From contig CAXXPR010000002.1 of the NCBI GenBank assembly GCA_963665715.2, positions 1,670,516 through 1,710,515 of the forward strand: DNA of 40,000 nt, read 5' to 3'. Under the pieces are notes generated by a model. It was not told where the DNA came from, did no database searches, and saw only the letters and a list, made by a program, of their open reading frames with translations. Position numbers and translations under genes: made by a program. The stretch's first letter is position 1. Each line of letters starts with the position of its first letter. This document shows, in pieces, positions 5,626 through 24,835 of the stretch. The stretch comes from Desulfatiglandales bacterium. GTDB taxonomy: Bacteria > Desulfobacterota > DSM-4660 > Desulfatiglandales > HGW-15.

Positions 5626-5889
5626 GCAGAATCCATGTGTCAGTGAACTCCTTAAAAGGGGAGTTCGAAAAGAAGATGCTTTAAAGACCGGGTGTGCTCG
5701 AAAGGGACCATAGAGAATGAGCCGAGTCTTATGGGTTCAAATGGCCCTTCCTGATAAATACTTCTCATCACTTGGGCTTGTGTTCCCCTGGAACTGATTA
5801 CTGCCTTGGATCAGACGATCCGCGCATTACGGACCCGTATGATGCGTGTTGTGGGAGGGGGTAGCTGTGAGGCTACTCCCTATCCCGAT
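5626..5889 (+). mobile_element. 5'-truncated, degenerate remnant of the group II intron (3' end of IEP ORF, domains V-VI, 3' splice end)
   Basis: Aligns by eye to 8223-8485 of the full copy with scattered substitutions and a small indel. It ends with the same ...ggctactccctatcccgat, followed by agcgg (the AGC half of a GTT|AGC core). It begins 18 nt after the hydrolase stop codon. Confidence 0.85.
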
Positions 5890-5931: not shown

Positions 5932-6285
5932 TTACTCTAATTTATTGTGTTTAATTTTTATTTTGTCTTGTTGTTTTTGCATTTCCGCCATCATACTTTG
6001 TAGTTTAGGACGGATTTGTGTCTGATAGTAATTCATAGCTTCGTCTTCTGTTTGAAAAACTTCAGTTGCATGCCATTCCTTGGGTATGCCAATACAATCA
6101 ATATTGTCCCAAGTATGAACTATGGCAATATATCCATTGACTGTCTCATCAAAACGAACACCGCCTTTCATCCGAATAGAAGGAGATAGCCCATTAAATT
6201 GAGATTGATTTGATTTCTCACAGCACTTTTTATATTTTTTGCCACTACCACAAGGGCAGGGATCATTCCGGCCTATTTTTGTCAT
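5932..6285 (-). CDS. Cassette ORF: SEC-C metal-binding motif protein
   Basis: The N-terminal [15 protein letters not shown] is the classic SEC-C Zn-binding motif. A GTTAGC core lies 29 nt upstream of the start (minus orientation). Confidence 0.7.
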
Positions 6286-6313: not shown

Positions 6314-6376
6314 AGCTAACGCGCTGCATAAGCGGATTGGCAAGCTTTTCGCCAATTCCGACTTGATGCAAATGTT
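6314..6376 (-). other. attC (short class), interrupted by intron copy 1; the remainder resumes at 8486
   Basis: agctaacgcgctgcataagcggattggcaagcttttcgccaattccgacttgatgcaaatgtt is nearly collinear with the intact attC at 23099-23165. Joining 6376 to 8486 restores gtt|agca. Confidence 0.75.
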
Positions 6377-8485
6377 GTGTGCCGGGCTGGTCCGGCTGCT
6401 AATTGGTGATGCGGAGATATTTATGACACAAATACTCTGCAAAGTCCATATCCAGGCTGACGGAGCCGAAGGATAGTCGGAGGCAAGGGTGTTCCAGTAA
6501 TGTGCGCCTGAAGGAAGCCTAAGACAAAAGCGTGGGTTGACGTACAGGTATGCCCCGTACCTATGAGGTAGAGGGCAGGCAGATTTGAGGCCGGGTGAAG
6601 CCGGGACGAGTCCGCAACACAGGACAAAGTCCTATATCCGTTACATGGCTGAGCCAGGTATATCTGACAATCGTGCGCTGAAAGTAGCCGAGGCTTACCC
6701 CGGGAGGTCCGCTGTGTCTCAAAGGGTCTATCGCTGTAAGCTACCGGAATATTGGGGAAACCGGTAAAAAAAAAATCCCGGCATCAAATGACCGGGCGTC
6801 CCGGTCAATGATGAGCCTGTTCTTAAGAGCGGGGCAAACAAACAGAGGGCGCAGGCGGTAGAAACCGGCGAGTGATCAAACCGCAAGGGGAGATTATCGC
6901 ACAGCGGAAGTCAGCAGAGGGCATAATAGTTCCCGAGTACAGTCGGTACTAAGGAATAAGGCCCGAACGGTGCCACCTATCGAATGGTAGGGGTAAATGA
7001 GAGCGGTTATTAGGAGACGAGTCTAATGAAATCATTGCGGCAGTGGAAACAACTTGAGTTGTACTCTATAGATCCCGAGCCCAGGGCTAAGACGGATACG
7101 AGTTCCGAAGATTTTATTGCGTCACGTTTATCTGAAAGCCCGACAGGTCAGATCCGGCTCATGGAGTCAATCTGTGAGCGGAACAACATGAGACGCGCTA
7201 TCAAGCGGGTTATTAAGAACAAGGGAGCCCCCGGTGTGGATGGTATGACTGTCCGAAAGATAGAGAAGTATTACAATAGGCACCGGGATAAAATTGAAAA
7301 GGCATTACTTGAGGGAACCTACATGCCGACCCCGGTACTGCAGAAGGAGATACCCAAACCAAATGGCGGTGTCCGCCTTCTGGGAATACCAATAGTGCTG
7401 GACAGAGTAATACAACAGGCTGTAGCCCAGATTCTGACAAGTGTCTGGGATCATACCTTTTCAGAGAACAGCTTTGGCTTCCGGCCTAAACGGTCCCAGC
7501 ATGGCGCTATGCGCAGGTACAGGGAGTTCGTGAAGGCTGGAGGAAAATATGTGATAGACATTGATCTATCCAAATTCTTCGACCGGGTAAACCATGATCG
7601 TTTATTAGCAAGGTTATCCACCCGGATAAAGGATAAGAGGGTACTAAAGCTGATTCGCAGGTTTCTTACATCCGGAGTAATGATAGATGGAATGGAAGAA
7701 CCAACAGAAGAGGGAACACCTCAGGGAGGGCCGTTATCTCCTTTACTGAGTAATATCGTTCTTGATGAACTGGATAAAGAGCTTGAAAAGCGTAGTCTTC
7801 GCTTTGTCCGATATGCTGATGACTGTGTCATATTTGTCAAAAGCAGAAAGGCGGCGAATCGAGTAATGAGCAGTATAAGCCTGTTTATAGAAAATAAACT
7901 CAGGCTTAAGGTGAACAGGGAAAAGAGCAGCATTACACTTCCATGGAAAAGTAAATATTTGGGGTTTTGTGTGACCAACTCGAAAGAGAATCCTAAAATC
8001 CGAATTCACTGGAAGTCTATTAAGCGGTTTAAAGAAAGGGTAAGAGAAATAACCTCCAGACGCCGTGGTAGAAGTATTAAACAGGTGATCTGGGAGTTAA
8101 AAGTCTATATGAACGGCTGGTGGAATTATTATGGTTTAACCGAATCCTACAACCGTTTGAAACCCCTTGACCACTGGATAAGACGACGCCTGAGGGCTAT
8201 TATCTGGAAACACTGGAAGAACCGCAGAACCCGTGTCAGTGAACTCCTTAAAAGAGGAGTTCGCAAAGAAGAAGCTGTTACTACCGGGTGTGCTCGAAAG
8301 GGGCCATGGAGAATGAGCCGAGTCTTATGGGTTCAAATGGCCCTTCCTGATAAATACTTCTCATCACTTGGGCTTGTGTTCCCATGGAACTGAATACTGC
8401 CTTGGATCAGCCGAACCGCGCATTACGGACCCGTATGATGCGTGGTGTGGGAGGGGGTAGCTGTGAGGCTACTCCCTATCCCGAT
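6377..8485 (+). mobile_element. Group II intron, class C (IIC-attC type), full-length copy 1
   Basis: 5' GTGTG. About 650 nt of structured, ORF-poor RNA, then an RT/maturase ORF. Domain V-like hairpin at about 8415-8446 with a CGC triad and a 2-nt 3' bulge. Domain VI-like stem with a bulged A 8 nt from the end; 3' end ...cccgat. Inserted directly after an attC hairpin. Confidence 0.9.
7026..8393 (+). CDS. Group II intron-encoded reverse transcriptase/maturase (no endonuclease domain)
   Basis: RT motifs: GVDGMT, RLLGIPIVLDRVIQQA, FGFRP, DIDLSKFFDRVNHD, TPQGGPLSPLLSNI, YADD in RYADDCVIFV. Maturase X-like C-terminus (GWWNYYG). At 455 aa it ends without a D/En domain, as expected for class C. 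Confidence 0.95.
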   Translation: MKSLRQWKQLELYSIDPEPRAKTDTSSEDFIASRLSESPTGQIRLMESICERNNMRRAIKRVIKNKGAPGVDGMTVRKIEKYYNRHRDKIEKALLEGTYMPTPVLQKEIPKPNGGVRLLGIPIVLDRVIQQAVAQILTSVWDHTFSENSFGFRPKRSQHGAMRRYREFVKAGGKYVIDIDLSKFFDRVNHDRLLARLSTRIKDKRVLKLIRRFLTSGVMIDGMEEPTEEGTPQGGPLSPLLSNIVLDELDKELEKRSLRFVRYADDCVIFVKSRKAANRVMSSISLFIENKLRLKVNREKSSITLPWKSKYLGFCVTNSKENPKIRIHWKSIKRFKERVREITSRRRGRSIKQVIWELKVYMNGWWNYYGLTESYNRLKPLDHWIRRRLRAIIWKHWKNRRTRVSELLKRGVRKEEAVTTGCARKGPWRMSRVLWVQMALPDKYFSSLGLVFPWN

Positions 8486-8703
8486 AGCAAAATAGGTTAT
8501 TTATGACACTTAAACTTAAATTAAAAATAAAAAAACAAGAGCATAATAAGTACGATGGTTCATTATCTTTTTATCATAGTAATGGAGCTGGTTGTTCTGT
8601 CATTACTATAATGGAAAACAGCCCTCATGATACTATTAATACGCTTATTGATGGACTCATGAATGTCACCCCTAATTTTATGCAAAGAGAAATTGATGAA
8701 TAT

Positions 8704-8967
8704 TTAAAGGATGCGCGTAAACCGTATCAATGGCATATTTTTTTTAGATGGTGGAGTTATTTCAGGCGCAGGTTTAGCGCTCCATCCTAACTCTTTTGCC
8801 CAAGGCTGTAGAGTTTCGGAATCAATGCGTTGAATATCAAATGTGCATTCATGATCGTCTCCAGGGAAAGCTTGCGCTACTTTACGATAAGGAATAACGA
8901 TATCATTTTCCTTGCATTCAATAAGGTTTTTCTCTAAGGCTTTACGATGTGTTATTGTTTCATCCAT
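8704..8967 (-). CDS. Cassette ORF, hypothetical (87 aa)
   Basis: Preceded, in minus orientation, by GTTAGCAAATAAGAGGAGATAACCATCATG (core plus strong SD). The 3' part overlaps a plus-strand ORF and its true end is uncertain. Confidence 0.45.
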   Translation of the reverse strand: MDETITHRKALEKNLIECKENDIVIPYRKVAQAFPGDDHECTFDIQRIDSETLQPWAKELGWSAKPAPEITPPSKKNMPLIRFTRIL

Positions 8968-8987
8968 GATGGTTATCTCCTCTTATT

Positions 8988-9118
8988 TGCTAACGTTTAA
9001 GTTAAGGAGCCCGGCGGTTTAATGGTGATTAGCCTCATGCTCCTAAGATGCTTGTTAATGTTGACTGTGCTCCGCCCGGCAAGATAGTAGCTGGGTCCCC
9101 TTGAACTTTTTGTTATAA
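8988..9118 (-). other. attC (long class)
   Basis: Bounded by tgctaac and gttataa. The arms aagttaaggagcccggcgg and ccgcccggcaagatagtagctgggtccccttgaactt are largely complementary. Paralogous to 13072-13200. Confidence 0.7.
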
Positions 9119-9122
9119 AAAA

Positions 9123-9467
9123 TTACTCCTCGGTTTTAATTGATAGTATATTTTTAATTTCTTTTAATGTCTTTTTGTCTGTACGAAAATTGATTTTAAA
9201 AATAACGTCCTTTTCAAGGATTAATACTAAATTGTTTTCTGTGAGATCATATTCTCTTATACCTACTCCGCCATCGTATTCTTTTCCATCATACCATTCA
9301 ACTGTTGGTCTGAAAGGCGGAATCTCGTATTGAGCGCTGATCATAAGGTATATTGATTGGTCCTCATTAGGATTAGGATATACTTCGGAATCAAAATCTA
9401 TCTGAACATACTCTCCATCACCTGCTTCAGTATATTCCACTTTCTTTGCTTCAAATTTTATTTCCAT
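9123..9467 (-). CDS. Cassette ORF, hypothetical acidic protein (114 aa)
   Basis: Fills the cassette exactly, with its stop 5 nt before the TTATAAC core and its start 15 nt after a GTTATAA core. No family recognised. Confidence 0.6.
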   Translation of the reverse strand: MEIKFEAKKVEYTEAGDGEYVQIDFDSEVYPNPNEDQSIYLMISAQYEIPPFRPTVEWYDGKEYDGGVGIREYDLTENNLVLILEKDVIFKINFRTDKKTLKEIKNILSIKTEE

Positions 9468-9481
9468 TAATTACCTGGTTT

Positions 9482-9568
9482 TTATAACGGCCAAGCTCAC
9501 CAGCCCCGCCATGATATTTTATATCAAGCAAGGAACCCACCGGGGTCTGGTGTAGCTGTTTGTTAGCG
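9482..9568 (-). other. attC (87 bp)
   Basis: Bounded by ttataac and gttagcg, with internal complementary arms caccagccccg / cggggtctggtg. The stop codon of the upstream cassette ORF lies inside the GCTAAC core. Confidence 0.65.
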
Positions 9569-10174
9569 GTTGTTTTCTTGACTCATTTCTATAATAGCAT
9601 TGTATCTTGAAAGATATTGTGAGTCGCTTTCAGGATCGATATCGCACCAATTATTTTGTATTACCATATCATTGACACTAGAAAAAGATGGACTAACAAC
9701 ATATTTCTTTTCGTCTGGATCTTTCATAAGTGATAAATCAGCCAGCCAAACATAAGATTCAAAAATGCCGTCAGTAGTTTCATTTTCAGCTATATATGAT
9801 AATTTTTCAGTATCTTCTTCAAAGAACTTTCTTATAAAATAAACACCCCTTGGACCACATTTAATGCCTGCAAGTGAAACTTGAGTGTTGTTTTCTAAAA
9901 TGAAGATGCCATTATCTGTTATAGATTTGACAGCAAATATTTTTTTGTTCCAAGGCGTTGGAGGGGTAGGATATTTACTGTTTATTTTGTCCATCATTTT
10001 AAACCCCTCATTCAAAGAATCAATTTCTTTTTGGGTAGCGTCCCTTACAACAATTTCACCTTTCGCATTTTTATATGCTGTTTCAGAAAATGATATAGAT
10101 TTTTTGTCATTATTATCACAGCCAAGTAACGTAATAATAATTAATATCGTTGGTATTGATTTACACAATTTCAT
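9563..10174 (-). CDS. Cassette ORF: predicted lipoprotein (203 aa)
   Basis: Signal peptide with lipobox IIITLLGC|D. GTTAGCGGTATAAGGGAATG (core plus SD) is at the start. The segment ITDNGIFILENNTQVSLAGIKCGP weakly recalls SNase-like OB-fold proteins; this is not asserted. Confidence 0.65.
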   Translation of the reverse strand: MKLCKSIPTILIIITLLGCDNNDKKSISFSETAYKNAKGEIVVRDATQKEIDSLNEGFKMMDKINSKYPTPPTPWNKKIFAVKSITDNGIFILENNTQVSLAGIKCGPRGVYFIRKFFEEDTEKLSYIAENETTDGIFESYVWLADLSLMKDPDEKKYVVSPSFSSVNDMVIQNNWCDIDPESDSQYLSRYNAIIEMSQENNR

Positions 10175-10191
10175 TCCCTTATACCGCTAAC

Positions 10192-12009
10192 GACGCTGTC
10201 GAAAAACCCACTTTATAAAAAAATATTAATCCTGGGAAATGACAGCCTGAAAAAAATATATTTATTGTAAAAATAAAATGATTAAAAAAGAAAAACTAAA
10301 ATCCGGTAAGAAAAATCGATCTACAGGCCTATATGGCCTTCATTCGGCCTTTTCTATGTACCTTGTATTGCGTAGCTGGTGCCATAGTTGCATATTTTCT
10401 CGATATTGTGAACTATACAATACAGCATCCACTGAATATTCACCTTTACCTTTCCTCTCAGGGTAAATCTGTCCATTCTCTTATTGGCTCTGATATTTCC
10501 AAAAACCGGCTCAACAATCCCCAGGCGCTTACTGTATGTCTTCCGACCTTCTGGTGTATCTATCTTGTTCCTCATTTCATCCAGAACACTTCCAGGTCGG
10601 TTCCCATCTATTATGGTTACTTGCCTCGATACTGTTTTATCAGGTTTTCGTAAACATTTTGCTCTAAGTTCACAGTTTCCACATGCTTTCTTTGTCCCCT
10701 GGTAAATTATCCCCTTATTACCTTTTTTATCTGCCCAGTTTCTGCTTCGGACGTAAAGGCTGTGACCTGCAGGGCAGATAAGTTTGTCCTTTTCATCATC
10801 ATAACTAAAATCTTCAACTGAAAAATATTTTTTACTCTTATCCGTTTTATTCTTATCAATAGGCCTGCGATATCGGCCTGCATCTGCAAACCTTATATCT
10901 CTCTTTCTGAACTGCTGGTCAGGGACATAAGCATCAACTTCATACTCTTTGCATGCTTTCAGGTTATTAATGCTGTAGTATCCTGTGTCTGCACTTACAG
11001 TCTTATTTTTTAAAGGGTCTTCAATACCAACTGCCTCGAGATTTTGCTTTGCGCCTTCCAGCATAGATTCCATTAGGCTGGTGTCATCACCTTTACCATA
11101 GGCCTCTGCATTAACTATTACCTGATGCTTTTCATCTACCATGGCATTGGCGTTATATCCCTGCAATACTCCATGTGATGTGGCTGCCATTTTTGCAGAC
11201 TCATTATCTGTTACATTACTCTGAATCTCTTTGCCTGTAGAACCTATCTTTGGTTTATTGCTTGAAAGAAATTTATCTATTCTGTCTGCTTTTTGCTTCA
11301 GACCCTTTATTCTTTTTTCTCTCTTTTGTTTTTCTGAAGTACTATTTTTGCTCTCTATTTTATCGGCAGATTGATGTTCTGCTATGGCCTCTTTAACTTT
11401 TTTCTCAAGCTTTTCTTTTTTCTTCTGAAGATCGCTGAAAGTCCCACTCCATTCCTTTGATGCATTTGAGGAGGCCTTCATTCCATCAAGACTGAAATGA
11501 GTGTTACCAAGTAACCCTTCTTCTTCACATATTAATAAGACTTTAGTGAAAAGGTTTCCAACTGTTTCATCCATTGAATTTACAAATGATGCTATCGTGC
11601 TGTGATCAGGCTTTTGACAGCAGGAGAGGGCCATGAAGGTGATATTTTCTTTACACGCTCTTTCAAGTGGTCTGGTAGAAAACATTCCTCGTGAATAGCC
11701 GAACAAAATTATCTTTAATAAAACCTTAGGATCAATTGCCTTACGACCAGTGTCATCATTCCTGTATCGTTTATCAAAGAATCTCAGGTCAAGCCTTTCT
11801 TCAATGATGTAATGTATTGCATACTCAAGGGTGCCAGGTTCTAACTGGTCCTCAAGAGATAATGGTATCATCCTTAATTGGTCATAGTCGGTTGGGGTGT
11901 AGCGTGCCATCAAGTAAGCTCCGTGTGATGAAGAGGTTAATTGCAATTTAGCACACTGTGTTATATCTTCAAGTATTATTAAGTCCTTTTTTACTTTTTC
12001 GACACCGTC
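10192..12009 (-). mobile_element. IS1182-family insertion sequence (copy A) inserted in an attC core
   Basis: 15-bp terminal inverted repeats GACGCTGTCGAAAAA (10192-10206) and GACGGTGTCGAAAAA (reverse complement of 11995-12009). Flanks read gctAAC|IS|AACgtg, an apparent 3-bp duplication. Single transposase ORF. Confidence 0.8.
10354..11910 (-). CDS. IS1182-family (IS5/DDE-type) transposase
   Basis: The N-terminus MARYTPTDYDQ...LEPGTLEY...RYRNDDTGRKAIDPKVLLKIILFGYSRG...R.LERACKENI.FMAL is characteristic of IS1182-family transposases as I recall them. The track start at 11946 probably over-extends. Confidence 0.9.
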   Translation of the reverse strand: MARYTPTDYDQLRMIPLSLEDQLEPGTLEYAIHYIIEERLDLRFFDKRYRNDDTGRKAIDPKVLLKIILFGYSRGMFSTRPLERACKENITFMALSCCQKPDHSTIASFVNSMDETVGNLFTKVLLICEEEGLLGNTHFSLDGMKASSNASKEWSGTFSDLQKKKEKLEKKVKEAIAEHQSADKIESKNSTSEKQKREKRIKGLKQKADRIDKFLSSNKPKIGSTGKEIQSNVTDNESAKMAATSHGVLQGYNANAMVDEKHQVIVNAEAYGKGDDTSLMESMLEGAKQNLEAVGIEDPLKNKTVSADTGYYSINNLKACKEYEVDAYVPDQQFRKRDIRFADAGRYRRPIDKNKTDKSKKYFSVEDFSYDDEKDKLICPAGHSLYVRSRNWADKKGNKGIIYQGTKKACGNCELRAKCLRKPDKTVSRQVTIIDGNRPGSVLDEMRNKIDTPEGRKTYSKRLGIVEPVFGNIRANKRMDRFTLRGKVKVNIQWMLYCIVHNIEKICNYGTSYAIQGT

Positions 12010-12071
12010 AACGTGTTGATAACCAGCCTGGCGAGCTTTTTGCCAGGTCTGAGTTTATTAAATTGTTGTGT
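12010..12071 (-). other. attC (short class), separated from its GTTAGC core (10186-10191) by IS copy A
   Basis: aacgtgttgataaccagcctggcgagctttttgccaggtctgagtttattaaattgttgtgt has a central palindrome cctggc..gccagg, the same architecture as 23099-23165. Confidence 0.6.
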
Positions 12072-12074
12072 AAT

Positions 12075-13049
12075 TTATTTAAATTTATCCCCTTTGAGGG
12101 AGCATAGCTCTATACACCTATCTAGCCAAGATTGATACCAATACCAGCAACCTGCGACATCAACTCCATAACCTTTTCCTGGTTTTTTTGCATCCTCAGA
12201 TTTCCACATTTCAACATGTTCAGGATAAACTCGGAATTTTGGAAAACCAGCACCCCTCACTGCAGCAGCAATATCACTCGGCCTATATTTCTTTCTCTCA
12301 ACTTCCTTTTTTACCCAGTATTCTTTATCAATTTTTTTAGCTAGATCTGATTTAGGGTCTATAAATTCAACAACTTTATCTGCTTGGCCGGGCCTATTAA
12401 CAAGCTTCTTTTTAAAGAGAAGACGGTAGGAAAAATTGGGGCTATTATACTCATCATGGTTTAATGCATCATCAAATTCAACAATGTATGCTTTAAGTCG
12501 CTTTGGAATATCAGCTTCTAACTTTTTACCTTGTAATTGTTCCTCTGATAGTTCTATGAATTGCAATGAATAACTTAAATATTCGTCCAATGAGTGTCTA
12601 GTCCCGAAATATTTTTTAATATAATAGTTGTAATTTAAAATGCATGCTTGATACCTACCACTTAAATATTCATCAAGTGATAATGTCATTTGGTGCTCAA
12701 TTTCATGGCGAAGACCGATTAGAAATCTTAGATTATTTGCTGTATTTTTATCAATAGGCGATAAAATATCATTTAGGCACCTTTCAAGTTCCCAATATTT
12801 ATATGCGCCTTTTTTTGTTCTATCGAAAAACCTTCGTTTCCCATGTTGTTGAAAATACCTGTACTCAACTCCATTTGAGCGAAAATATGCATGTAGTAGA
12901 TAAGTCCATGCTATTATCATTAATACAATAAATGTTTCTGATTTAAACTTTATGAGTGGATCATTAAATATTTTTACTGCTGATAAAGAAGCTTCCTTAG
13001 ACTTAGCGAGCAGTTCATCCTTAATAGATCCAATTCTACGCTTTGTCAT
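12075..13049 (-). CDS. Cassette ORF: DUF3644-like / HEPN-like (Rx4H) protein, candidate RNase or abortive-infection-type protein
   Basis: 324 aa from ATG 13049, after GTTGTGTAATAAATAAAGAGGATAAAGTAATG (core plus SD). The N-terminus SLSAVKIFNDPLIKFKSETFIVLMIIAWTYLLHAY and the motif FLIGLRHEIEH (R-x4-H) resemble DUF3644/Abi-like HEPN proteins. From memory, not searched. Confidence 0.55.
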   Translation of the reverse strand: MTKRRIGSIKDELLAKSKEASLSAVKIFNDPLIKFKSETFIVLMIIAWTYLLHAYFRSNGVEYRYFQQHGKRRFFDRTKKGAYKYWELERCLNDILSPIDKNTANNLRFLIGLRHEIEHQMTLSLDEYLSGRYQACILNYNYYIKKYFGTRHSLDEYLSYSLQFIELSEEQLQGKKLEADIPKRLKAYIVEFDDALNHDEYNSPNFSYRLLFKKKLVNRPGQADKVVEFIDPKSDLAKKIDKEYWVKKEVERKKYRPSDIAAAVRGAGFPKFRVYPEHVEMWKSEDAKKPGKGYGVDVAGCWYWYQSWLDRCIELCSLKGDKFK

Positions 13050-13071
13050 TACTTTATCCTCTTTATTTATT

Positions 13072-13200
13072 ACACAACGTGAAGTTAAGGAGCCTAGCGG
13101 TTTAATGGCAACCAACTTCACACACCTAAGATGCTTATAATATTGATTTTGTTCCGCACGGCAAGATAGTAGCTAGGTCCCCTTGAACTTATGGTTAAAT
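13072..13200 (-). other. attC (long class)
   Basis: Bounded by acacaac and gttaaat. Contains aagttaaggagcctagcgg...cggcaagatagtagctaggtccccttgaactt, collinear with 8988-9118. Confidence 0.7.
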
Positions 13201-13221
13201 GTTTAGATGGTATATTTCCCT

Positions 13222-13635
13222 CTACTTCTTTAGTTGCACTAAATTGATTTTATATTTTATCTTCTCAAGATTTTTTATTTCTAATGTCAGACTATTAATG
13301 CAAGCACAAGCTGCAACTGAACGCTTGAAAAAGCCATCGTCTGGATTGGTGGCCAAATATTCTATATTGAGTACGTCCTCTTTAATGTCAATATTACACT
13401 TTGTTATTTTATAGGCACAATTTATTTGTACGAACGCCTCAATCTTTAGAGTGTTAGGAGTCGTCCATTGAACCGTAGATACACCATAATTTGAAAATTC
13501 ATAAGGATTCTCATCAAAACGTTCACAGGATGATGAATCAAAACTAAAGTCATACTTATTATGGCTAGTGCTACAGGACAATAGGGTTGTCATCAAAAGA
13601 GATATTAAGATCACAGCTAGTTTTATTTTATTCAT
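13222..13635 (-). CDS. Cassette ORF: predicted lipoprotein (about 137 aa)
   Basis: Signal peptide with lipobox TTLLSC|S. ATG at 13635 (track uses GTG at 13644). Several Cys residues. No family recognised. Confidence 0.6.
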   Translation of the reverse strand: MNKIKLAVILISLLMTTLLSCSTSHNKYDFSFDSSSCERFDENPYEFSNYGVSTVQWTTPNTLKIEAFVQINCAYKITKCNIDIKEDVLNIEYLATNPDDGFFKRSVAACACINSLTLEIKNLEKIKYKINLVQLKK

Positions 13636-13644
13636 ATTTTTCAC

Positions 13645-13760
13645 ATTTAACGCTTACGCTAACATGCAAGCGGTGCAGCTACTAAAAGATTATTGAAGCA
13701 CCGAATATCACAAACCTAAAAAGGTTGATTCGGCAAGATAGTAGCTTGTCATTGTTGAGC
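13645..13760 (-). other. attC (long class)
   Basis: Low-coordinate core atttaac (or gctaac at 13658-13663); high-coordinate core gttgagc. Carries the conserved ttcggcaagatagtagc block. The upstream ORF stop lies inside the site. Confidence 0.6.
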
Positions 13761-14336
13761 GTGTGGTTCGGTGTCTCTTCTATTATCTACTGGTATACGT
13801 TCCTTACCATCGCGCCCATTTATCCATTCAATTGCATCTTCAGCTTCTTCTGCCACATACCACCAGCCAGGACAAACCTCTTTATCTTTCGCTTTTAACT
13901 CAAGTAAAGTAGGAAGAGCCTGCCTAAATTTCATTTGGCCAACTGCATAACATGACCAAAATCTCACAACTGGTGAGGTATCATTCAGGCTTTTTAGCAA
14001 AGTGGTTTCTGCCAATTTTCTATGTTTATTTTTTTTTGATGGCTCTATAATGCCAATTCCTTCAGCCGCCTGCCCTCGAACATATTCATTAATATCTGAA
14101 TTAGCCAATAGGTTAATTAATATACCCAAGGTTGAATCACTATTCTCGACCCAAGAAAGAGCATAAGTTGCAGATTCTTTGTTATGTATTTCATTTCCAT
14201 TTAAAGCAATTTTCGCCAATACGTCGATATATTTTTGTGAAAGAGCATTAGTAGCAATCGATTTTGCGGCCTCAAATGCCTCAACAGCATTTCCAAACTC
14301 AATATCATTTATTAATTTAGAAATATTTTCTATCAT
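13749..14336 (-). CDS. Cassette ORF: HEAT/PBS-lyase-like repeat protein
   Basis: 195 aa from ATG 14336, after GTTCGGTGTAAGGAAACAATG. Repeated helical units with ...VRGQAAEGIG... and ...SPVVRFWSCYAVGQM... are typical of HEAT-like repeats. The track N-terminal extension reads through the attC. Confidence 0.6.
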   Translation of the reverse strand: MIENISKLINDIEFGNAVEAFEAAKSIATNALSQKYIDVLAKIALNGNEIHNKESATYALSWVENSDSTLGILINLLANSDINEYVRGQAAEGIGIIEPSKKNKHRKLAETTLLKSLNDTSPVVRFWSCYAVGQMKFRQALPTLLELKAKDKEVCPGWWYVAEEAEDAIEWINGRDGKERIPVDNRRDTEPHAQQ

Positions 14337-14347
14337 TGTTTCCTTAC

Positions 14348-14477
14348 ACCGAACGATTGCGATAAGGAGTTTGCGGGTTAATGGCACCGATGAACTATTA
14401 AGTATGAAGGCCATTGAAACCTTTAAATCCCAATCGGCAAGAAAAACCAGCAAATCACCTTGATTGCTTGGTTAGCA
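14348..14477 (-). other. attC (long class)
   Basis: Bounded by accgaac and gttagca. Highly similar along its length to 20017-20146, sharing gcgataaggagtttgcgggttaatgg...caatcggcaagaaaaaccagcaaatc.ccttgattgct. Confidence 0.7.
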
Positions 14478-15180
14478 CGTTTTGGAGATACTGTTTACGT
14501 GCCTCATAATCTCCCATATTTAAGGGGAACGGTTCTCTACATTTTGAACATATTGCTCTATGTGTCGGACCTTTTTTAAAAATCATCCGATACAATTTTA
14601 CTGGTATCCATGGCAAATCTATTCTTTCTAATTTATGCTTTCCAATATTACCACATTTTTGGCACACACTGAGTTGGAAAAAACCCTTAGGTAGCTCTAC
14701 GCTGATTAGTTTAATAAATTGAGAAGCAACATTTGTTATATATTGGTCAATGTTATTTGCTGATAGCCCAGTATTGAAATAGGATGTTTCTCTTTCTTTT
14801 ATACTCCATATGTCATCGTTAAGTTCATCCCAGATACTATAGATGGGTTCATAATCGGATTTTGAATAGAGGCTATCAAGAGTAGCTACACCATCTTGAG
14901 GTGAGATCTCACCTTTAATAATTTCACGGCAGATATGTGCAGCATAGTTCAAAAAACTCTTTTCCTCGGATGGTAACTCCAGTTTAAGGTCAATAATGCT
15001 TTGCTTAAAATAGTATTTAATTTCTTCTAAGTCAGGATGTTTATCCATATCAAGACCTGCAAGGATTGCAACATTCTCTGATTCAACTCCATTGTTAAGC
15101 ATATCTATTGCCCATTCAGAGTAGTCCTTTGGCTGTGCTGCTCCTACCGCTATTTTTCCTGCAAGGTAATTGAATTCCAT
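14455..15180 (-). CDS. Cassette ORF, hypothetical with C-terminal Cys4 zinc-ribbon-like motif (241 aa)
   Basis: CQKCG...(29 aa)...CSKC near the C-terminus. A GTTAGC core lies 14 nt before the ATG. The last 7 codons run through the attC core. Confidence 0.6.
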   Translation of the reverse strand: MEFNYLAGKIAVGAAQPKDYSEWAIDMLNNGVESENVAILAGLDMDKHPDLEEIKYYFKQSIIDLKLELPSEEKSFLNYAAHICREIIKGEISPQDGVATLDSLYSKSDYEPIYSIWDELNDDIWSIKERETSYFNTGLSANNIDQYITNVASQFIKLISVELPKGFFQLSVCQKCGNIGKHKLERIDLPWIPVKLYRMIFKKGPTHRAICSKCREPFPLNMGDYEARKQYLQNVLTKQSR

Positions 15181-15200
15181 AGAAATCTCATAGTGCTAAC

Positions 15201-17107
15201 GAGGCTGTCGAAAAACCCCGTTCAAAAACCATATTATTCTGAGTTAAAGTTCTACAGCCGGATAAAAATAATATTTAAAATTAAAACCGATTTTTTTGTG
15301 AGATAAGAAATCATGAAGCAAGGTTTATAAAAAGGCGCTAAAACCCTTGTATAGGGCCTTTCAGGCCTCTTTTCCTACGCTCCCTGAGATGAAACCATTC
15401 CATAATTGCATATTTTTTCAATATTGTGAACTATGCAGTATAGCATCCACTGTATATTTACCTTAACTTTGCCTCTTAAGGTAAATCTATTCATTTTTTT
15501 ACATGCCCTTATATTACCAAACACCGGTTCAACTATCCCTAACCGTTTGCTGTAAGTCTTTCGGCCTTCAGGTGTATCTATCTTATTCTTCATTTCATCC
15601 TTGAGACTGCCAGGTCTGTTTCTATCCAGTATGGTTACCTGTCTTGCTTCTGTTTTGTCAGGTTTGCGCAAACATTTTGCTCTCAGTTCGCAAGCTCCAC
15701 ACGCTTTCTTCGTCCCCTGGTAAATTATCCCCTTATACCCATCTTTAGTTAAATAGTTTCGGCTTCTGACATACATGCTATGCCCGGCAGGACAGACTAA
15801 TTTATCCGTTTCATCATTATAGTTGAAATCTTCAACTGTAAAATATTTTTTCCTCTTATCAGTCTTTCTCTTATCAACAGGCCTGCGGTGTCTCTCTGCA
15901 TCTGCAAATCTTATATCTCTTTTTCTGAACTTTGGGTCAGGTATGTAAGCATCTACTTCATATTCTTTGCATGCTTTAAGATTCTTTGCACTGAAGTATG
16001 CAGTGTCAGCACTTACTGTTTTATCTTTTAACGGCTCTTCAATTCCGATAGCTTCAAGGTTTTCCTTTGCTCCATTAAGCATCGGTTCCATAAGGCTGCC
16101 GTCATCTCCTTTTCCGAATACCTCAGCGTTTACTATCACCTGATGCATTTCATCTACCACAACATTAGCGTTGAATCCCTGCTGAACTCCGTGAGATGTT
16201 GTCATCTTGGCAGATTCATTGTCTGTTATGTTACTCTGTACCTCTTTGCCCTGACTGCCTATCCTTGGCTCACTCTCAGATAAAAACTTCTTTATTTTTT
16301 CAGATGCCTGTTCAAGCTTCTTTATCTTTGCTTCCTGTCTCTTCTCCCATGAGATATCTTTCTTCTTACCTGATACTTTGTCCGTTGCTCTATGTTCTTT
16401 GATTGCCTCATCAATCTTCCGCTCAAGGGCATCCTGCTTCTTTTTTAAATCATTCAGCTTTCCGCTCCATTCCTTTGAAGCATTAGAGGATGTCTTCATT
16501 CCGTCAAGACTGAAGTGTGTACCGCCAAGAAGATCACATGCTTCACAGGTCATCAATACTTCTTTAAAAAGATCTTTTGTCTCTTTACCTATCGATGAAA
16601 CAAAGGATGCTATTGTGCTGTGATCCGGAGTCTGAAAATCTGCCAGCAGCATAAACTTAACGTTTTCCCTGCATGCCTGTTCTATAGGACGTGATGACGT
16701 CATACCTCGCGAGTAACCGAGAAGTATTATTTTTAGAAGTGTTTTGGGGTGTATTGCCTTGCGACCGGTATTATCGTTTTTATATCTTTCGTTGAAGGTA
16801 CTCAGATCAAACTTTTCTATTACAAAGTCTATTGTATGTTCAAGTGTGCCTGGTTCCAGTTCTTTGTCATGTGATACTATAACCAGCTTGCTCTGGTTTC
16901 TGTTCGTGGGTTTGTAGCGTGCCATCCGGAGCTCCTCTTAAGGGAAGTTTTTATCAAATGGATGGCAAATATATAGCATAGTACGTGATAAGTGTAAATT
17001 GATTAAATTAAAATAAAGCTATTAAAAAAGGCCTAAATTAAATCTAGTAATGAGTCTATTGTTTTCTCAAGTGAATGGATGGATCAGGGTACTTTTTCGA
17101 CAGCCTC
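15201..17107 (-). mobile_element. IS1182-family insertion sequence (copy B, diverged from copy A) inserted in an attC core
   Basis: Perfect 15-bp terminal inverted repeats GAGGCTGTCGAAAAA (15201-15215 and reverse complement of 17093-17107). Flanks read gctAAC|IS|AACgta, the same position and orientation in the core as copy A. Confidence 0.8.
15375..16925 (-). CDS. IS1182-family (IS5/DDE-type) transposase
   Basis: 516 aa, collinear with the 10354-11910 protein (MARYKPT..., shared C-terminus KVNIQWMLYCIVHNIEKICNYG) but with many substitutions. Confidence 0.9.
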   Translation of the reverse strand: MARYKPTNRNQSKLVIVSHDKELEPGTLEHTIDFVIEKFDLSTFNERYKNDNTGRKAIHPKTLLKIILLGYSRGMTSSRPIEQACRENVKFMLLADFQTPDHSTIASFVSSIGKETKDLFKEVLMTCEACDLLGGTHFSLDGMKTSSNASKEWSGKLNDLKKKQDALERKIDEAIKEHRATDKVSGKKKDISWEKRQEAKIKKLEQASEKIKKFLSESEPRIGSQGKEVQSNITDNESAKMTTSHGVQQGFNANVVVDEMHQVIVNAEVFGKGDDGSLMEPMLNGAKENLEAIGIEEPLKDKTVSADTAYFSAKNLKACKEYEVDAYIPDPKFRKRDIRFADAERHRRPVDKRKTDKRKKYFTVEDFNYNDETDKLVCPAGHSMYVRSRNYLTKDGYKGIIYQGTKKACGACELRAKCLRKPDKTEARQVTILDRNRPGSLKDEMKNKIDTPEGRKTYSKRLGIVEPVFGNIRACKKMNRFTLRGKVKVNIQWMLYCIVHNIEKICNYGMVSSQGA

Positions 17108-17218
17108 AACGTAGAATTAACGAGCGTGCGATGCCTGCCAATAAAGGCTCTTAGAAGATCGAACGTTGCGAACCTTTAAAGACCGATTTGGCAAGATAGT
17201 AAGCACGTCACGTTGAAT
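17108..17218 (-). other. attC (long class), separated from its GTTAGC core (15195-15200) by IS copy B
   Basis: Begins aacgtagaattaacgagcg, contains tttggcaagatagtaagc, and ends gttgaat just after the stop of ORF 17233-17463. Confidence 0.6.
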
Positions 17219-17232
17219 GAATGGTTGGGAGC

Positions 17233-17463
17233 CTAATACTCCTCCTCTTCATCATCAGTAATATATTCCCACATTTCATTTTGATGCAACCAGATTGGAT
17301 CAGCGTTTCTTCTTATGAATTCATCAACATCCATTCCATCAATTGTCGGCGGGCGTTTTACTCGCTTCTGTTTTCCATTTATGAATATGGTTTCATATTC
17401 TTTTTTCCGCTTCTTCTTTGCAGCTTTTTCGGCGGCAGTAAGTTTTCGTTTACGTTTTGCCAT
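17233..17463 (-). CDS. Cassette ORF, small protein with Lys/Arg-rich N-terminus and acidic tail (76 aa)
   Basis: ATG at 17463 (MAKRKRKLTAAEKAAKKKRKK...DDEEEEY). The track start at 17508 reads into the attC. No family recognised. Confidence 0.5.
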   Translation of the reverse strand: MAKRKRKLTAAEKAAKKKRKKEYETIFINGKQKRVKRPPTIDGMDVDEFIRRNADPIWLHQNEMWEYITDDEEEEY

Positions 17464-17483
17464 TATATTTATTCTCTGTTCAC

Positions 17484-17607
17484 TCCCAACGCCCAAAATA
17501 ACAGGCATGCGGTGCTTACCTTTAAAGTTTATTTAATTTGAAAACTTTGCGAACCACGAAAGATCGATTCGGCAAGATAGTAGCATGTCCTTGTTGATTT
17601 AAATGTT
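17484..17607 (-). other. attC (long class), interrupted at its high-coordinate core by intron copy 2
   Basis: ctcccaac...ttcggcaagatagtagcatgtccttgttgatttaaatgtt|intron. Joining 17607 to 19718 gives gtt|atttt. Confidence 0.7.
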
Positions 17608-19717
17608 GTGTGCCGGGCTGGTCCGGCTGCTAATTGGTGATGCGGAGATATTTATGACACAAATACTCTGCAAAGTCCATATCCAGGCTGACGGAGCCGA
17701 AGGATAGTCGGAGGCAAGGGTGTTCCAGTAATGTGCGCCTGAAGGAAGCCTAAGACAAAAGCGTGGGTTGACGTACAGGTATGCCCCGTACCTATGAGGT
17801 AGAGGGCAGGCAGATTTGAGGCCGGGTGAAGCCGGGACGAGTCCGCAACACAGGACAAAGTCCTATATCCGTTACATGGCTGAGCCAGGTATATCTGACA
17901 ATCGTGCGCTGAAAGTAGCCGAGGCTTACCCCGGGAGGTCCGCTGTGTCTCAAAGGGTCTATCGCTGTAAGCTACCGGAATATTGGGGAAACCGGTAAAA
18001 AAAAAAATCCCGGCATCAAATGACCGGGCGTCCCGGTCAATGATGAGCCTGTTCTTAAGAGCGGGGCAAACAAACAGAGGGCGCAGGCGGTAGAAACCGG
18101 CGAGTGATCAAACCGCAAGGGGAGATTATCGCACAGCGGAAGTCAGCAGAGGGCATAATAGTTCCCGAGTACAGTCGGTACTAAGGAATAAGGCCCGAAC
18201 GGTGCCACCTATCGAATGGTAGGGGTAAATGAGAGCGGTTATTAGGAGACGAGTCTAATGAAATCATTGCGGCAGTGGAAACAACTTGAGTTGTACTCTA
18301 TAGATCCCGAGCCCAGGGCTAAGACGGATACGAGTTCCGAAGATTTTATTGCGTCACGTTTATCTGAAAGCCCGACAGGTCAGATCCGGCTCATGGAGTC
18401 AATCTGTGAGCGGAACAACATGAGACGCGCTATCAAGCGGGTTATTAAGAACAAGGGAGCCCCCGGTGTGGATGGTATGACTGTCCGAAAGATAGAGAAG
18501 TATTACAATAGGCACCGGGATAAAATTGAAAAGGCATTACTTGAGGGAACCTACATGCCGACCCCGGTACTGCAGAAGGAGATACCCAAACCAAATGGCG
18601 GTGTCCGCCTTCTGGGAATACCAATAGTGCTGGACAGAGTAATACAACAGGCTGTAGCCCAGATTCTGACAAGTGTCTGGGATCATACCTTTTCAGAGAA
18701 CAGCTTTGGCTTCCGGCCTAAACGGTCCCAGCATGGCGCTATGCGCAGGTACAGGGAGTTCGTGAAGGCTGGAGGAAAATATGTGATAGACATTGATCTA
18801 TCCAAATTCTTCGACCGGGTAAACCATGATCGTTTATTAGCAAGGTTATCCACCCGGATAAAGGATAAGAGGGTACTAAAGCTGATTCGCAGGTTTCTTA
18901 CATCCGGAGTAATGATAGATGGAATGGAAGAACCAACAGAAGAGGGAACACCTCAGGGAGGGCCGTTATCTCCTTTACTGAGTAATATCGTTCTTGATGA
19001 ACTGGATAAAGAGCTTGAAAAGCGTAGTCTTCGCTTTGTCCGATATGCTGATGACTGTGTCATATTTGTCAAAAGCAGAAAGGCGGCGAATCGAGTAATG
19101 AGCAGTATAAGCCTGTTTATAGAAAATAAACTCAGGCTTAAGGTGAACAGGGAAAAGAGCAGCATTACACTTCCATGGAAAAGTAAATATTTGGGGTTTT
19201 GTGTGACCAACTCGAAAGAGAATCCTAAAATCCGAATTCACTGGAAGTCTATTAAGCGGTTTAAAGAAAGGGTAAGAGAAATAACCTCCAGACGCCGTGG
19301 TAGAAGTATTAAACAGGTGATCTGGGAGTTAAAAGTCTATATGAACGGCTGGTGGAATTATTATGGTTTAACCGAATCCTACAACCGTTTGAAACCCCTT
19401 GACCACTGGATAAGACGACGCCTGAGGGCTATTATCTGGAAACACTGGAAGAACCGCAGAACCCGTGTCAGTGAACTCCTTAAAAGAGGAGTTCGCAAAG
19501 AAGAAGCTGTTACTACCGGGTGTGCTCGAAAGGGGCCATGGAGAATGAGCCGAGTCTTATGGGTTCAAATGGCCCTTCCTGATAAATACTTCTCATCACT
19601 TGGGCTTGTGTTCCCATGGAACTGAATACTGCCTTGGATCAGCCGAACCGCGCATTACGGACCCGTATGATGCGTGGTGTGGGAGGGGGTAGCTGTGAGG
19701 CTACTCCCTATCCCGAT
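17608..19717 (+). mobile_element. Group II intron, class C (IIC-attC type), full-length copy 2
   Basis: All ORF translations are identical to copy 1, and the coordinate offset is constant except for one extra A in a poly-A run (A11 at 17997-18007 versus A10 at 6766-6775). Same 5' exon heptamer aaatgtt. Confidence 0.9.
18258..19625 (+). CDS. Group II intron-encoded reverse transcriptase/maturase (identical to 7026-8393)
   Basis: The 455-aa translation is identical to copy 1. Confidence 0.95.
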   Translation: MKSLRQWKQLELYSIDPEPRAKTDTSSEDFIASRLSESPTGQIRLMESICERNNMRRAIKRVIKNKGAPGVDGMTVRKIEKYYNRHRDKIEKALLEGTYMPTPVLQKEIPKPNGGVRLLGIPIVLDRVIQQAVAQILTSVWDHTFSENSFGFRPKRSQHGAMRRYREFVKAGGKYVIDIDLSKFFDRVNHDRLLARLSTRIKDKRVLKLIRRFLTSGVMIDGMEEPTEEGTPQGGPLSPLLSNIVLDELDKELEKRSLRFVRYADDCVIFVKSRKAANRVMSSISLFIENKLRLKVNREKSSITLPWKSKYLGFCVTNSKENPKIRIHWKSIKRFKERVREITSRRRGRSIKQVIWELKVYMNGWWNYYGLTESYNRLKPLDHWIRRRLRAIIWKHWKNRRTRVSELLKRGVRKEEAVTTGCARKGPWRMSRVLWVQMALPDKYFSSLGLVFPWN

Positions 19718-20003
19718 ATTTTCGTCTTTTCGTCTTTTTATTGTATTTTGATATTAAATAATTTTCTCTGAGTTTAATGAATATTTTAACAACAAAACCG
19801 ATAATTGAAACAATGAACATGATACAAACAGTTATTAAAACTCCGATATAATTCATTTCAACGCCATGGCCTGTTTTATAATAATCTAAGCCGTGACCAG
19901 TTATTACTTTATGAATGAGTAACAAAACGAAACCTAGAAACCCAATGGTAATTGAGCATCCAAAAATTACACTGAAGAATTTATTTAGTTTACCTTTTGC
20001 CAT
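19701..20003 (-). CDS. Cassette ORF: small membrane protein; C-terminus altered by intron insertion
   Basis: Two hydrophobic helices and a basic tail. The last 5 codons plus the stop (YRDRE*) are encoded by the reverse complement of the intron 3' end. Without the intron the frame would stop at T|AA within the core. Confidence 0.55.
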   Translation of the reverse strand: MAKGKLNKFFSVIFGCSITIGFLGFVLLLIHKVITGHGLDYYKTGHGVEMNYIGVLITVCIMFIVSIIGFVVKIFIKLRENYLISKYNKKTKRRKYRDRE

Positions 20004-20016
20004 TTATCCATTCGAA

Positions 20017-20146
20017 AAATAACGTTTGCGATAAGGAGTTTGCGGGTTAATGGTGCCGATGAACGATTAAGTAAAAAGCGCCTTAAAGCTGTTGAATTCC
20101 AATCGGCAAGAAAAACCAGCAAATCCCCTTGATTGCTTTGTTAGCA
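20017..20146 (-). other. attC (long class)
   Basis: Bounded by aaataac and gttagca. Close paralogue of 14348-14477. Confidence 0.7.
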
Positions 20147-20154
20147 TTAAATGA

Positions 20155-20454
20155 CTATTCTACTGAACATATGAACTCAAACTCGATATCAGGATATTCA
20201 GCCAACAAACTAAACATTGAATCAAATTCCTGTTTATGTTCATTATTATGCGAGCGCCATATGGCATTGGTATCTCCAAGTTTTAGAGTAACCGCACTTG
20301 CCAATTGAATTGATATTAAATTATTTCCGTTCGCATTAGAAAATATTTGATTTAAATTATCTGAAGAGCTTTTAATTGCTATCTGTTCCTGATTAATTGC
20401 CATTTTCATTTGAGCAATGACCTTCGATGTAACTTTTAAAAAAACTGTTTCCAT
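20155..20454 (-). CDS. Cassette ORF, hypothetical (99 aa)
   Basis: GTTAGCATCCGAAAGGAACTATATTAATG (core plus SD) at the start; the stop is 8 nt before the attC core. No family recognised. Confidence 0.5.
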   Translation of the reverse strand: METVFLKVTSKVIAQMKMAINQEQIAIKSSSDNLNQIFSNANGNNLISIQLASAVTLKLGDTNAIWRSHNNEHKQEFDSMFSLLAEYPDIEFEFICSVE

Positions 20455-20474
20455 TAATATAGTTCCTTTCGGAT

Positions 20475-20545
20475 GCTAACGGTGAGGATGACCGGCGAAC
20501 GGGTTAAAAAAGAAAAAAGGTGTTGCACCCCAGTGGCCGTTATCC
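20475..20545 (-). other. Possible attC or attC fragment at the IS91-like element boundary
   Basis: gctaac...gttatcc cores at the right spacing, but by eye the arms pair poorly. The site may be disrupted by the adjacent IS91-like element. Confidence 0.3.
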
Positions 20546-20802
20546 CACATTAAATTGTTTGCCTCCATAGTCCAGTTCGACCGGTCCATCCATTTGTTGG
20601 ACGGCACTCTTGGTACTATGGATTTTTCTGACACCCTATTTTTGTGCCCCTACAATTAGAAAACTACACTTCTGAACAATGATTCCGAAGATACAAGGGG
20701 TTGTGATCCTAAAATGTACATTGAATACGTTTGAAAATGGTTGTTATTTTGGCTTAAAGGTATACTTCACCATAGAAGCTATATATTATCATTTAAATTT
20801 TA

Positions 20803-22671: not shown

Positions 22672-22738
22672 TGCCAACGACACGATAACCGGCCGGGCGG
22701 CGTTTTATCGCCCGGTCGGGTTTATTGATTGGTTGTGT
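22672..22738 (-). other. attC (short class)
   Basis: Bounded by tgccaac and gttgtgt, with internal palindrome ataaccggccgggcg / cgcccggtcgggtttat. Overlaps the 3' end of ORF 22705-23049. Confidence 0.55.
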
Positions 22739-23049: not shown

Positions 23050-23098
23050 GACTTTTTCCTACATGTGAGTTCTATAGTTTCCTTACTTTTCAATTCAC

Positions 23099-23803: not shown

Positions 23804-24835
23804 ATGGAAGAATTAACTGATAATAATAAAGGTATAAAAGAAAATAAAAAGAATAATATCGCCAACAATAAGGCTCCCAGATTATTAAACCAGGTCCAGA
23901 ACAGGATTAGAGCTAAGCATTACAGTATTCGTACTGAACAGGCTTATCTTGACTGGATAAAAAGGTTTATCCTTTATCATGGAAAGCGACACCCTGCCGA
24001 TATGGGTGACGTAGAGATCTGTGATTATTTAACACACCTTGCAGTGAATAGAAAAGTGGCTTCCTCCACTCAAAACCAGGCTTTGAGTGCTATTCTTTTT
24101 ATGTATAGAGAAATTATCAAGAAAGACCTGGAAGAATTTGATGATCTTATCAGGGCAAAGCGGCCATCACATTTGCCGGTGGTTTTTACTCCCGAAGAAA
24201 CCAGGAAGATACTTGTTCAACTGGAAGGTACAAACTGGCTGATGGGGCATCTGCTTTATGGTTCCGGCCTGAGAGTAATGGAATGTACCCGGCTTAGAGT
24301 CAAGGATATTGATTTTGAATATAAGCAGATAGTTGTAAGAGACGGTAAAGGTAATGTTGATCGTGTAACCATGCTTCCCAGGATAATTATTGAAAACCTT
24401 AAGACCCACCTGGAAAAAATAAAAATACAGCACAAGAGCGATCTCGATGAAGGGTTTGGGACAGTTTATTTACCCTATGCTCTTGATAAAAAGTATCGCA
24501 ATGCCAATAGAAGCTGGATATGGCAGTATGTATTTCCTGCTGCCAGACGTTCGGTTGACCCCAGATCGGGTGTTGAACAGAGACATCATATTTCTGAAAC
24601 TGTTATCCAGCGGGCTGTGAAAAAGGCTATTCGTAATGCAGGGATTACCAAGGCAGGGTCCTGTCATTCATTAAGGCATAGTTTTGCAACTCATTTACTT
24701 GAAGACGGGTATGATATACGAACAGTTCAGGAGCTGCTTGGACATAAGGACGTAAGAACTACCCAGATATACACTCATGTTCTCAGCAGGGGAGGAAAGG
24801 GCGTAAAAAGTCCCGGAGACAAGCTTTTTGAATAG
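23804..24835 (+). CDS. intI: Integron integrase (tyrosine recombinase IntI)
   Basis: [25 protein letters not shown]-terminus. Catalytic GLRVMEC (R), [10 protein letters not shown] (H-x-x-R), [13 protein letters not shown] (Y). The IntI-specific insertion [38 protein letters not shown] is present. Confidence 0.92.

Follow-up and report, generated by a model that had tools for sequence, protein, structure and literature searches.

We analyzed a 40,000-nucleotide (nt) stretch of the genome of a Desulfatiglandales bacterium (assembly GCA_963665715.2, contig CAXXPR010000002.1, forward-strand positions 1,670,516 to 1,710,515; hereafter the window), which holds an integron whose attC sites have been entered repeatedly by a group II intron. 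The integrase gene diverges from about 13 cassettes carried on the minus strand, and the attC sites of these cassettes span positions 6318-23165 and share one strand. Between adjacent cassettes lie imperfect AAC...GTT palindromes, which fall into two length classes and on the plus strand bulge on the 3' arm, as attC bottom strands should. Two full-length introns, copies A and B, and a truncated remnant lie within this array. Coordinates are collected in Table 1, including those of the intron-encoded protein (IEP), a reverse transcriptase (RT), and of the predicted contact between exon-binding site 1 (EBS1) and intron-binding site 1 (IBS1).

Table 1. Intron, attC and integrase features of the window.
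Feature	Position	Strand	Basis
Intron remnant, 5'-truncated: end of the IEP gene plus domains V and VI; 264 nt	5626..5889	+	
attC bottom-strand hairpin (AAC...imperfect palindrome...aaaTGTT), 5' exon of copy A	6318..6376	+	Sequence and fold; bulges on 3' arm
Intron copy A, 2109 nt, 5' GUGUG ... 3' GAU	6377..8485	+	
Predicted EBS1 loop GCAACACA; AACA (6616-6619) pairs with IBS1 UGUU	6614..6621	+	Rfam D1D4-3 alignment
Terminator-like hairpin and T-run on the cassette-sense strand inside the intron	6777..6796	-	Consensus match only
IEP, 455 amino acids (aa): RT (YADD) and maturase/X domain, without endonuclease domain	7026..8393	+	
Domain V, C-CGC-GCAU..., CGC triad at 8417-8419 in place of the usual AGC	8416..8449	+	Rfam RF00029 alignment
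Domain VI; bulged branch-point A at 8478, 7 nt before the 3' end; 3' splice site after 8485	8452..8485	+	
3' exon of copy A, the remaining R'' box, AGCAaaa; intron-binding site 3 (IBS3) = A	8486..8492	+	
attC bottom-strand hairpin (...gatttaaaTGTT), 5' exon of copy B	17552..17607	+	
Intron copy B, 2110 nt; IEP at 18258-19625	17608..19717	+	
Integron integrase IntI, divergent from the cassettes	23804..24835	+	TIGR02249, 469 bits (cut-off 265); Pfam matches

The domains of the IEP are RVT_1 and GIIM only, and the protein scored 415 bits against the NCBIfam group II RT/maturase equivalog TIGR04416 (cut-off 300). Its best solved relatives were of class C, the RTs of GsI-IIC (432 bits over the full length) and of the Eubacterium rectale IIC intron (351 bits), compared with 152 bits for LtrA (IIA) and 136 bits for TeI4h (IIB) among non-C proteins, and it fell within the class C ingroup of rooted trees. 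Rfam models of group II domains I-IV matched both full copies (in copy A, RF02001 at 6491-6694 with 66 bits and RF01998 at 6872-6963 with 36.3 bits). The domain V/VI model RF00029 aligned to 8414-8485 with 33.9 bits, under its gathering score of 40, and at a relaxed threshold matched one full copy and the fragment. The intron termini, GUGUG...GAU, fit the class C consensus GUGYG...AY. An earlier model-generated reading of the letters alone, hereafter the original prediction, had assigned the intron to class C from the CGC triad of domain V and the lack of an endonuclease (En) domain; we observed both traits, and the affinity of the IEP to IIC reverse transcriptases and its place inside class C agree with that assignment. 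From its sequence features, the element is a complete class C (IIC) group II intron.

Copies A and B, which were detected by repeat search and BLAST, proved to be as similar as had been predicted. Base-by-base alignment gave as sole difference one additional A near position 17997, within a poly-A stretch where homopolymer sequencing error is a possible cause; two mismatches reported by BLAST fall in the 5' flank, outside the intron. Such a 2.1-kb direct repeat at 99.95% identity is far beyond chance. Both full copies sit on the attC bottom strand, immediately after the hairpin, and the exons quoted in the original prediction (5' gcaaatgtt and ttaaatgtt; 3' agca, attt and agcg) were correct, as was the antisense orientation, with all three elements on the plus strand and the cassette open reading frames (ORFs) on the minus strand. 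The attC that precedes copy A was assigned to the cassette with ORF 8704-8967 (-), and an unoccupied attC at 23103-23161 matches its hairpin at 92% identity. Comparison with this unoccupied paralogue (23103-23165), which reads ...gatGTTAGCG, places the intron between GTT and AGC of the R'' box. The R' box is the one cut by the integrase, and R'' is the ORF-proximal end of the attC. The insertions had been described as splitting the attC core; the GTT/A cut (the slash marks the insertion point) is indeed seen, and the box so divided is the inverse core R'' and not the R' recombination core. Beside copy B, cassette ORF 19701-20003 (-) now stops 17 nt within the intron 3' end, the insertion having replaced its original stop, which had overlapped the R'' box.

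The remnant encodes the last 52 IEP codons and is 93.6% identical to the active copies. Its 3' exon, AGCG, begins at 5890, 42 nt past the stop of cassette ORF 5932-6285, and its 5' side, where the 5' exon and attC arm are absent, abuts an unrelated hydrolase gene, so that it marks the distal end of the array. The claim that all three elements share one attC position thus stands for the two full copies, and for the fragment it can be checked on the 3' side only. As the remnant is nearer to the active copies than to any relative from another species (85% or less), we conclude that it is an older copy of the same lineage.

Across the genome (7.63 Mb, two contigs, C1 and C2), we identified 11 full copies that are at least 99.8% identical, together with one fragment. 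All 11 keep intact 455-aa IEP ORFs. Two sites vary among them: the length of the poly-A run (A10-A13; window 6768-6777 and its equivalents), which is the only length-variable site, and one single-nucleotide polymorphism common to three copies. The variation in run length may be real slippage or homopolymer sequencing error. The opposite strand of the run is the T-tail of the terminator-like hairpin, and such a hairpin and T-run in each copy would be expected to terminate transcription from the cassette promoter Pc. The 2-kb flanks of the copies share attC-sized similarity only, one pair excepted, and copies I4 and I7 adjoin paralogous 3' cassettes that are 94% identical while the introns are 99.9% identical. 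These unrelated flanks, and the greater divergence of the shared cassette, indicate that the 11 copies are separate insertions and not segmental duplications. Congeneric genomes contain only copies at 83-85% identity, from which we conclude that the 11-copy burst is specific to this genome.

To place these insertions among the available targets, we performed a census of attC sites by iterated nhmmer with curated seeds from the window attC sites, which replaced an energy-based AAC...GTT scan that was too noisy. The census gave 90 attC sites in about 10 clusters, only two of which adjoin intI; adding two occupied types missing from the seed set brings the count to 92. All 11 copies lie at TGTT/A, a motif present on only 50 of the 92 sites (hypergeometric p 7e-4). 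Clear AAC...GTT attC sites, bulged on the 3' arm, are the targets in 10 cases, and I11 occupies an attC-like hairpin within an attC cluster. The insertions are spread over one integron, one array adjacent to an integrase and four attC clusters that lack an integrase. A genome-wide preference for such hairpins, which the original prediction anticipated, was therefore observed, with 11 of 11 copies following a hairpin on the bottom strand. That prediction had also set the repeated insertion within one chromosomal array against a behavior described mainly in mobile integrons. Chromosomal examples from Geobacter, Nitrosomonas and Desulfurivibrio had in fact been published (PMC3001079, Table 3); the copy number is what is unusual here.

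From these data, we propose that the element is a currently or very recently mobile class C intron that homes into the folded bottom strand of attC sites, and we put the probability of this reading at roughly 0.8. Under this proposal, the intron would be transcribed antisense to the cassettes and would splice with the aid of its own RT/maturase, as the intact ribozyme and ORFs suggest. The lariat ribonucleoprotein would then read the attC hairpin followed by (T)GTT/A, pairing through 3-4 bp between EBS1 and IBS1 (AACA:UGUU, as its sequence and the covariation with the canonical lineage described below show) and through a single IBS3 base, the A seen in the target sequence. The EBS1 that had been proposed from the letters is the one found here. 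An EBS3 candidate at an internal-loop position (U here, A in L084) was rejected for inconsistent covariation in the sub-clade of L012, L016 and L017. Reverse splicing would follow between GTT and A of the R'' box, and nascent lagging-strand DNA at the replication fork would prime the cDNA. The strand bias of the copies, which is absolute, and the behavior of other introns whose IEP lacks an endonuclease lead us to infer this last step.

The strand bias became apparent when the copies were placed on the replication map. Cumulative GC skew has its minimum at about 0.25 Mb of C1, beside two dnaA-like genes, and its maximum at about 3.05 Mb of C2; the origin is placed accordingly at about 0.25-0.3 Mb of C1 and the terminus at the maximum, a pattern compatible with a single circular chromosome. 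Of the copies, the two on the plus strand belong to the right replichore and the nine on the minus strand, including one about 15 kb from the inferred terminus, to the left, so that every copy lies in the lagging-strand template. Among TGTT/A attC sites, 11 of the 36 whose bottom strand is on the lagging-strand template are occupied, in comparison to 0 of the 14 on the leading-strand template (Fisher p 0.022); for all attC sites the values are 11/61 and 0/31 (p 0.014). Arrays of 12 sites at 6.29 Mb and of 7 sites at 0.16 Mb are among those on the leading-strand template. Over 60 nt, the empty leading-template attC at C2:6293783 matches the site occupied by copy B without a difference (100% identity), and a second empty one matches that of copy I6 at 95%.

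This bias fits the reports that En-less introns prime from nascent strands at replication forks (PMC3898094) and that folding of attC bottom strands is most efficient when they are on the lagging-strand template (PMC8946536). Sedentary integrons of large size are usually oriented the other way (PMC8946536), and the window integron is in the rarer, 'exposed' orientation. The intron resembles RmInt1 and En-deficient Ll.LtrB in lacking an endonuclease and inserting into the lagging-strand template, and both of these use a nascent DNA primer (PMC3898094). They belong, however, to classes IIB/D and IIA, respectively, and recognize long homing sites through EBS1, EBS2 and EBS3 without a hairpin.

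The exclusive use of the lagging-strand template might instead be a by-product of local spread and chance, with no role for fork priming. There are only six loci, 25 of the 36 eligible lagging-template sites are empty, and p lies between 0.01 and 0.03. We nevertheless consider this explanation unlikely, if worth serious attention, as the six loci are dispersed over both replichores, the strand of the copies switches with the replichore, leading-template targets that are identical or 95% identical to occupied ones are empty, and an equivalent bias is established for other En-less introns (PMC3898094). We regard the strand rule as probable, not proven.

The site of insertion bears on how this intron is related to those already described from integrons. 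Published IIC-attC introns are a monophyletic subset of class C from mobile and chromosomal integrons (PMC3001079). They lie antisense to the cassettes, the strand that they enter being the attC bottom strand (PMC3001079, PMC7923331), and insert at R'' with the consensus TTGT/T (IBS1/IBS3), which is a majority pattern and not an absolute rule (PMC7923331). We checked the TTGT/T rule of PMC7923331 on plasmid introns that lie antisense to blaIMP-4, blaIMP-1 and dfrA12-orfF cassettes (L084, L087 and L089), and six further canonical introns are found in Desulfobacterota chromosomes (L094-L099). These canonical introns are inserted at ...TTGT/T, one base earlier in the R'' GTT. They start with GUACGCCC in L084, L089 and L094-L096 (junctions within the locus), end with ACCCGAU in L084, L087, L089 and L094-L099, and have the EBS1 loop GCACAAGA or GCACAACA (GC-ACAA-xx), in which ACAA pairs with UUGU. 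The intron studied here starts with GUGUGCC at a GTT/A site and has GC-AACA-CA at the equivalent EBS1 loop positions; (T)GTT/A, and not the TTGT/T consensus, was found for all 11 copies and for most relatives.

In several respects the intron is like the IIC-attC introns (S.ma.I2, E.c.I7, Kl.pn.I1/I3, G.s.I1 and N.e.I1; Leon, Quiroga, Centron, Roy), being likewise a class C intron with an En-less RT/maturase that occupies the R'' box of the bottom strand right after the hairpin, antisense to the cassettes, also in integrase-less attC clusters. It differs from them in its insertion register (GTT/A, not TTGT/T), in its EBS1 (AACA, not ACAA) and 5' end (GUGUG, not GUACG), in an IEP identity of only 42-48% and in forming a separate clade (support 100/100). 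The 11 near-identical copies in one genome also contrast with the literature remark on few integron copies for IIC-attC introns. For the sigma-70-like outward promoter Pout (TTGCCA-17-TNTAAT), described for IIC-attC introns on the complementary strand of domain I or II, a consensus scan gave nothing above shuffle background; TTGCCT occurs opposite about 6480-6486, without an acceptable -10 element. Some IIC-attC members are themselves listed without a predicted Pout (PMC3001079).

The new register is shared by at least 15 relatives from other species (72-86% identity), whose 5' exons end in GTT, mostly with A at +1. Their hosts are Desulfatiglandales, Desulfobacteraceae and other sediment metagenome-assembled genomes. 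The relatives follow attC-like AAC...GTT palindromes, several of them close to pieces of intI or to attC types that also occur in this genome, and the EBS1 loop GCAACACA is invariant among them. Some close relatives (74-86% IEP identity) lie on short contigs (L004, JASFHP010000022.1; L008, L009, L014 and L015) that were binned as Bathyarchaeota, Pirellulales, Bacteroidales and Gammaproteobacteria, which may reflect horizontal spread or mis-binned repeat contigs. We also found exact head-to-tail tandems of relatives (L014, junction 2036/2037; G553:C1:2178813-2183026), in which the next intron starts at the base after the previous 3' end, and the 5' 'exon' CCCGAT breaks the GTT rule.

To examine these relationships, we built an IQ-TREE phylogeny of 57 IEPs, rooted with three non-C proteins, under LG+G4; the canonical clade in this tree is represented by TTGT/T introns from class 1 integron plasmids and Desulfobacterota genomes, which stand in for S.ma.I2 and G.s.I1. 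The GTT/A clade (100/100) and the TTGT/T clade (100/99) were both well supported. The GTT/A clade joined two sets of terminator-targeting introns (ultrafast bootstrap [UFboot] 96, SH-aLRT 99) whose terminator targets we verified by eye, and a quick posterior mean site frequency tree under LG+C20 gave the same arrangement (SH-aLRT 99). In agreement with the tree, the termini 5' GUGUGCCGGGC and 3' CUAUCCCGAU are common to the lineage and to L001 and L003, two introns of the terminator type. Class C introns that target terminators (B.h.I1 type; examined in plasmids of E. coli, Klebsiella, Providencia and Pseudomonas as L001-L003, L085, L086, L088 and L090) share with the lineage its IEP architecture, its targeting by a hairpin and a short IBS1, and the nearest placement in the maximum-likelihood (ML) tree. 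They insert after a GC-rich stem and T-run, usually sense to the upstream gene, whereas the lineage described here targets attC imperfect palindromes ending in GTT, antisense to the cassettes. An approximately unbiased (AU) test nevertheless keeps a tree with a joint attC-homing clade, and with p 0.27 an independent origin of attC homing is suggested rather than demonstrated. On sequence and phylogeny, then, this lineage appears to be related to, yet distinct from, the published IIC-attC introns.

A contrary explanation is that the element is an ordinary member of the published IIC-attC group and that its one-base shift is an artefact of boundary assignment, the true site being xTGT/T. The DNA would allow GT/T, since the 5' exon and the intron both end in T, and the AU test keeps a single clade with the canonical IIC-attC introns (p 0.27). 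We think this improbable, as the shifted intron, UGUGU...GA, would no longer conform to GUGYG...AY, and AU closes the Rfam alignment of domains V/VI. In addition, all relatives, also those at CGTT and GGTT, have an EBS1 AAC(A) that pairs with GTT, while the shifted register leaves only 2-3 bp; the canonical introns do differ, with ACAA at the equivalent loop positions and the 5' end GUACG; and both ML trees join the clade with terminator-type introns at the support given above. The altered EBS1 corresponds to the shifted target, and this agreement argues against an artefact of the boundary.

It is very improbable that the copies spread instead at the DNA level, by IntI-mediated cassette duplication or shuffling, homologous recombination or gene conversion of old insertions: integrase shuffling does carry cassettes between arrays, attC families are common to several arrays and I4 and I7 stand beside paralogous cassettes, but there are at least 10 distinct flanking cassettes, the similarity of at least 99.8% ends exactly at the intron ends with flanks at 94% or less, all 11 ORFs are intact, the strict TGTT/A and strand rules are expected of reverse splicing and not of conversion, and the remnant in the same array has stayed un-homogenised at 93.6%.

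Several points nonetheless weigh against the proposal of a mobile attC-homing class C intron with its own register. The junction is ambiguous by one nucleotide in DNA, as GT/T with UGUGUG...CGA gives an identical ligated sequence. Gene conversion, and not recency, could account in part for how nearly identical the copies are. A promoter scan for the intron itself gave nothing above shuffle background. The nhmmer census is incomplete, since two occupied attC types were absent from its seeds. The strand statistic is modest, with copies clustered in six loci (locus-level sign test about 0.03), and copy I3 is within about 15 kb of the inferred terminus.

IIC-attC introns have been thought sparse and poorly mobile because they lie antisense to cassette transcription (PMC3001079), and a part in forming cassettes and in causing polar effects within integrons has been proposed for them. 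The lineage described here, with its 11 near-identical copies, has clearly proliferated, and identical attC targets in both replication orientations provide a built-in control. The genome thus makes testable how IIC introns read hairpin targets, the one-base register shift being accompanied by a matching EBS1 change, and whether their mobility depends on single-stranded DNA of the lagging strand, a DNA state that also governs attC folding and cassette excision. The identical 2.1-kb repeats also provide substrates for intra-array deletion and for inversion between replichores. We tentatively raise the further possibility, which we hold to be somewhat doubtful, that attC homing arose twice in class C, here from terminator-targeting ancestors whose EBS1/EBS3 were re-tuned to the R'' GTT/A, and that invasion is gated by replication orientation. 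If this were so, arrays with the attC bottom strand on the leading-strand template, as is usual for large sedentary chromosomal integrons, would in effect be immune, and intron load would add to the costs of an 'inverted' array and might act as a selective force on how integrons are oriented.

Other features were noted in the genome and in the window. A second intI (60% identity) lies at G000 C2:4163342-4164322 next to a 16-attC array (4167573-4191682, bottom strand minus) whose cassettes are co-directional with intI, not divergent. Four identical copies of a tyrosine-recombinase gene (29.5% identity to IntI) lie at G000 C2:1565037, 3068310, 4179173 and 6155790, three of them within attC clusters that also hold intron copies, and the gene may be another attC-associated mobile element. 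Two insertion sequences of the IS1182 family, about 80% alike, lie on the minus strand of the window at 10186-12005 and 15190-17100 (transposases 10354-11946 and 15375-16925); each sits in an attC beside the AAC box and is bounded by terminal inverted repeats GGCTGTCGAAAAA / TTTTTCGACAGCC. An IS91-family (Y2/HUH) transposase gene at 20803-21993 (-) occupies a cassette slot between attC-like sites. Beyond the integrase, a purine-rich tract of degenerate short repeats (AGAAGTCAG-like units) extends over 25480-25671, downstream of the intI-adjacent ORF, and a c-di-GMP-I (cyclic di-GMP) riboswitch at 30353-30442 (+; RF01051, 74.6 bits) lies upstream of ORF 30475-31788.

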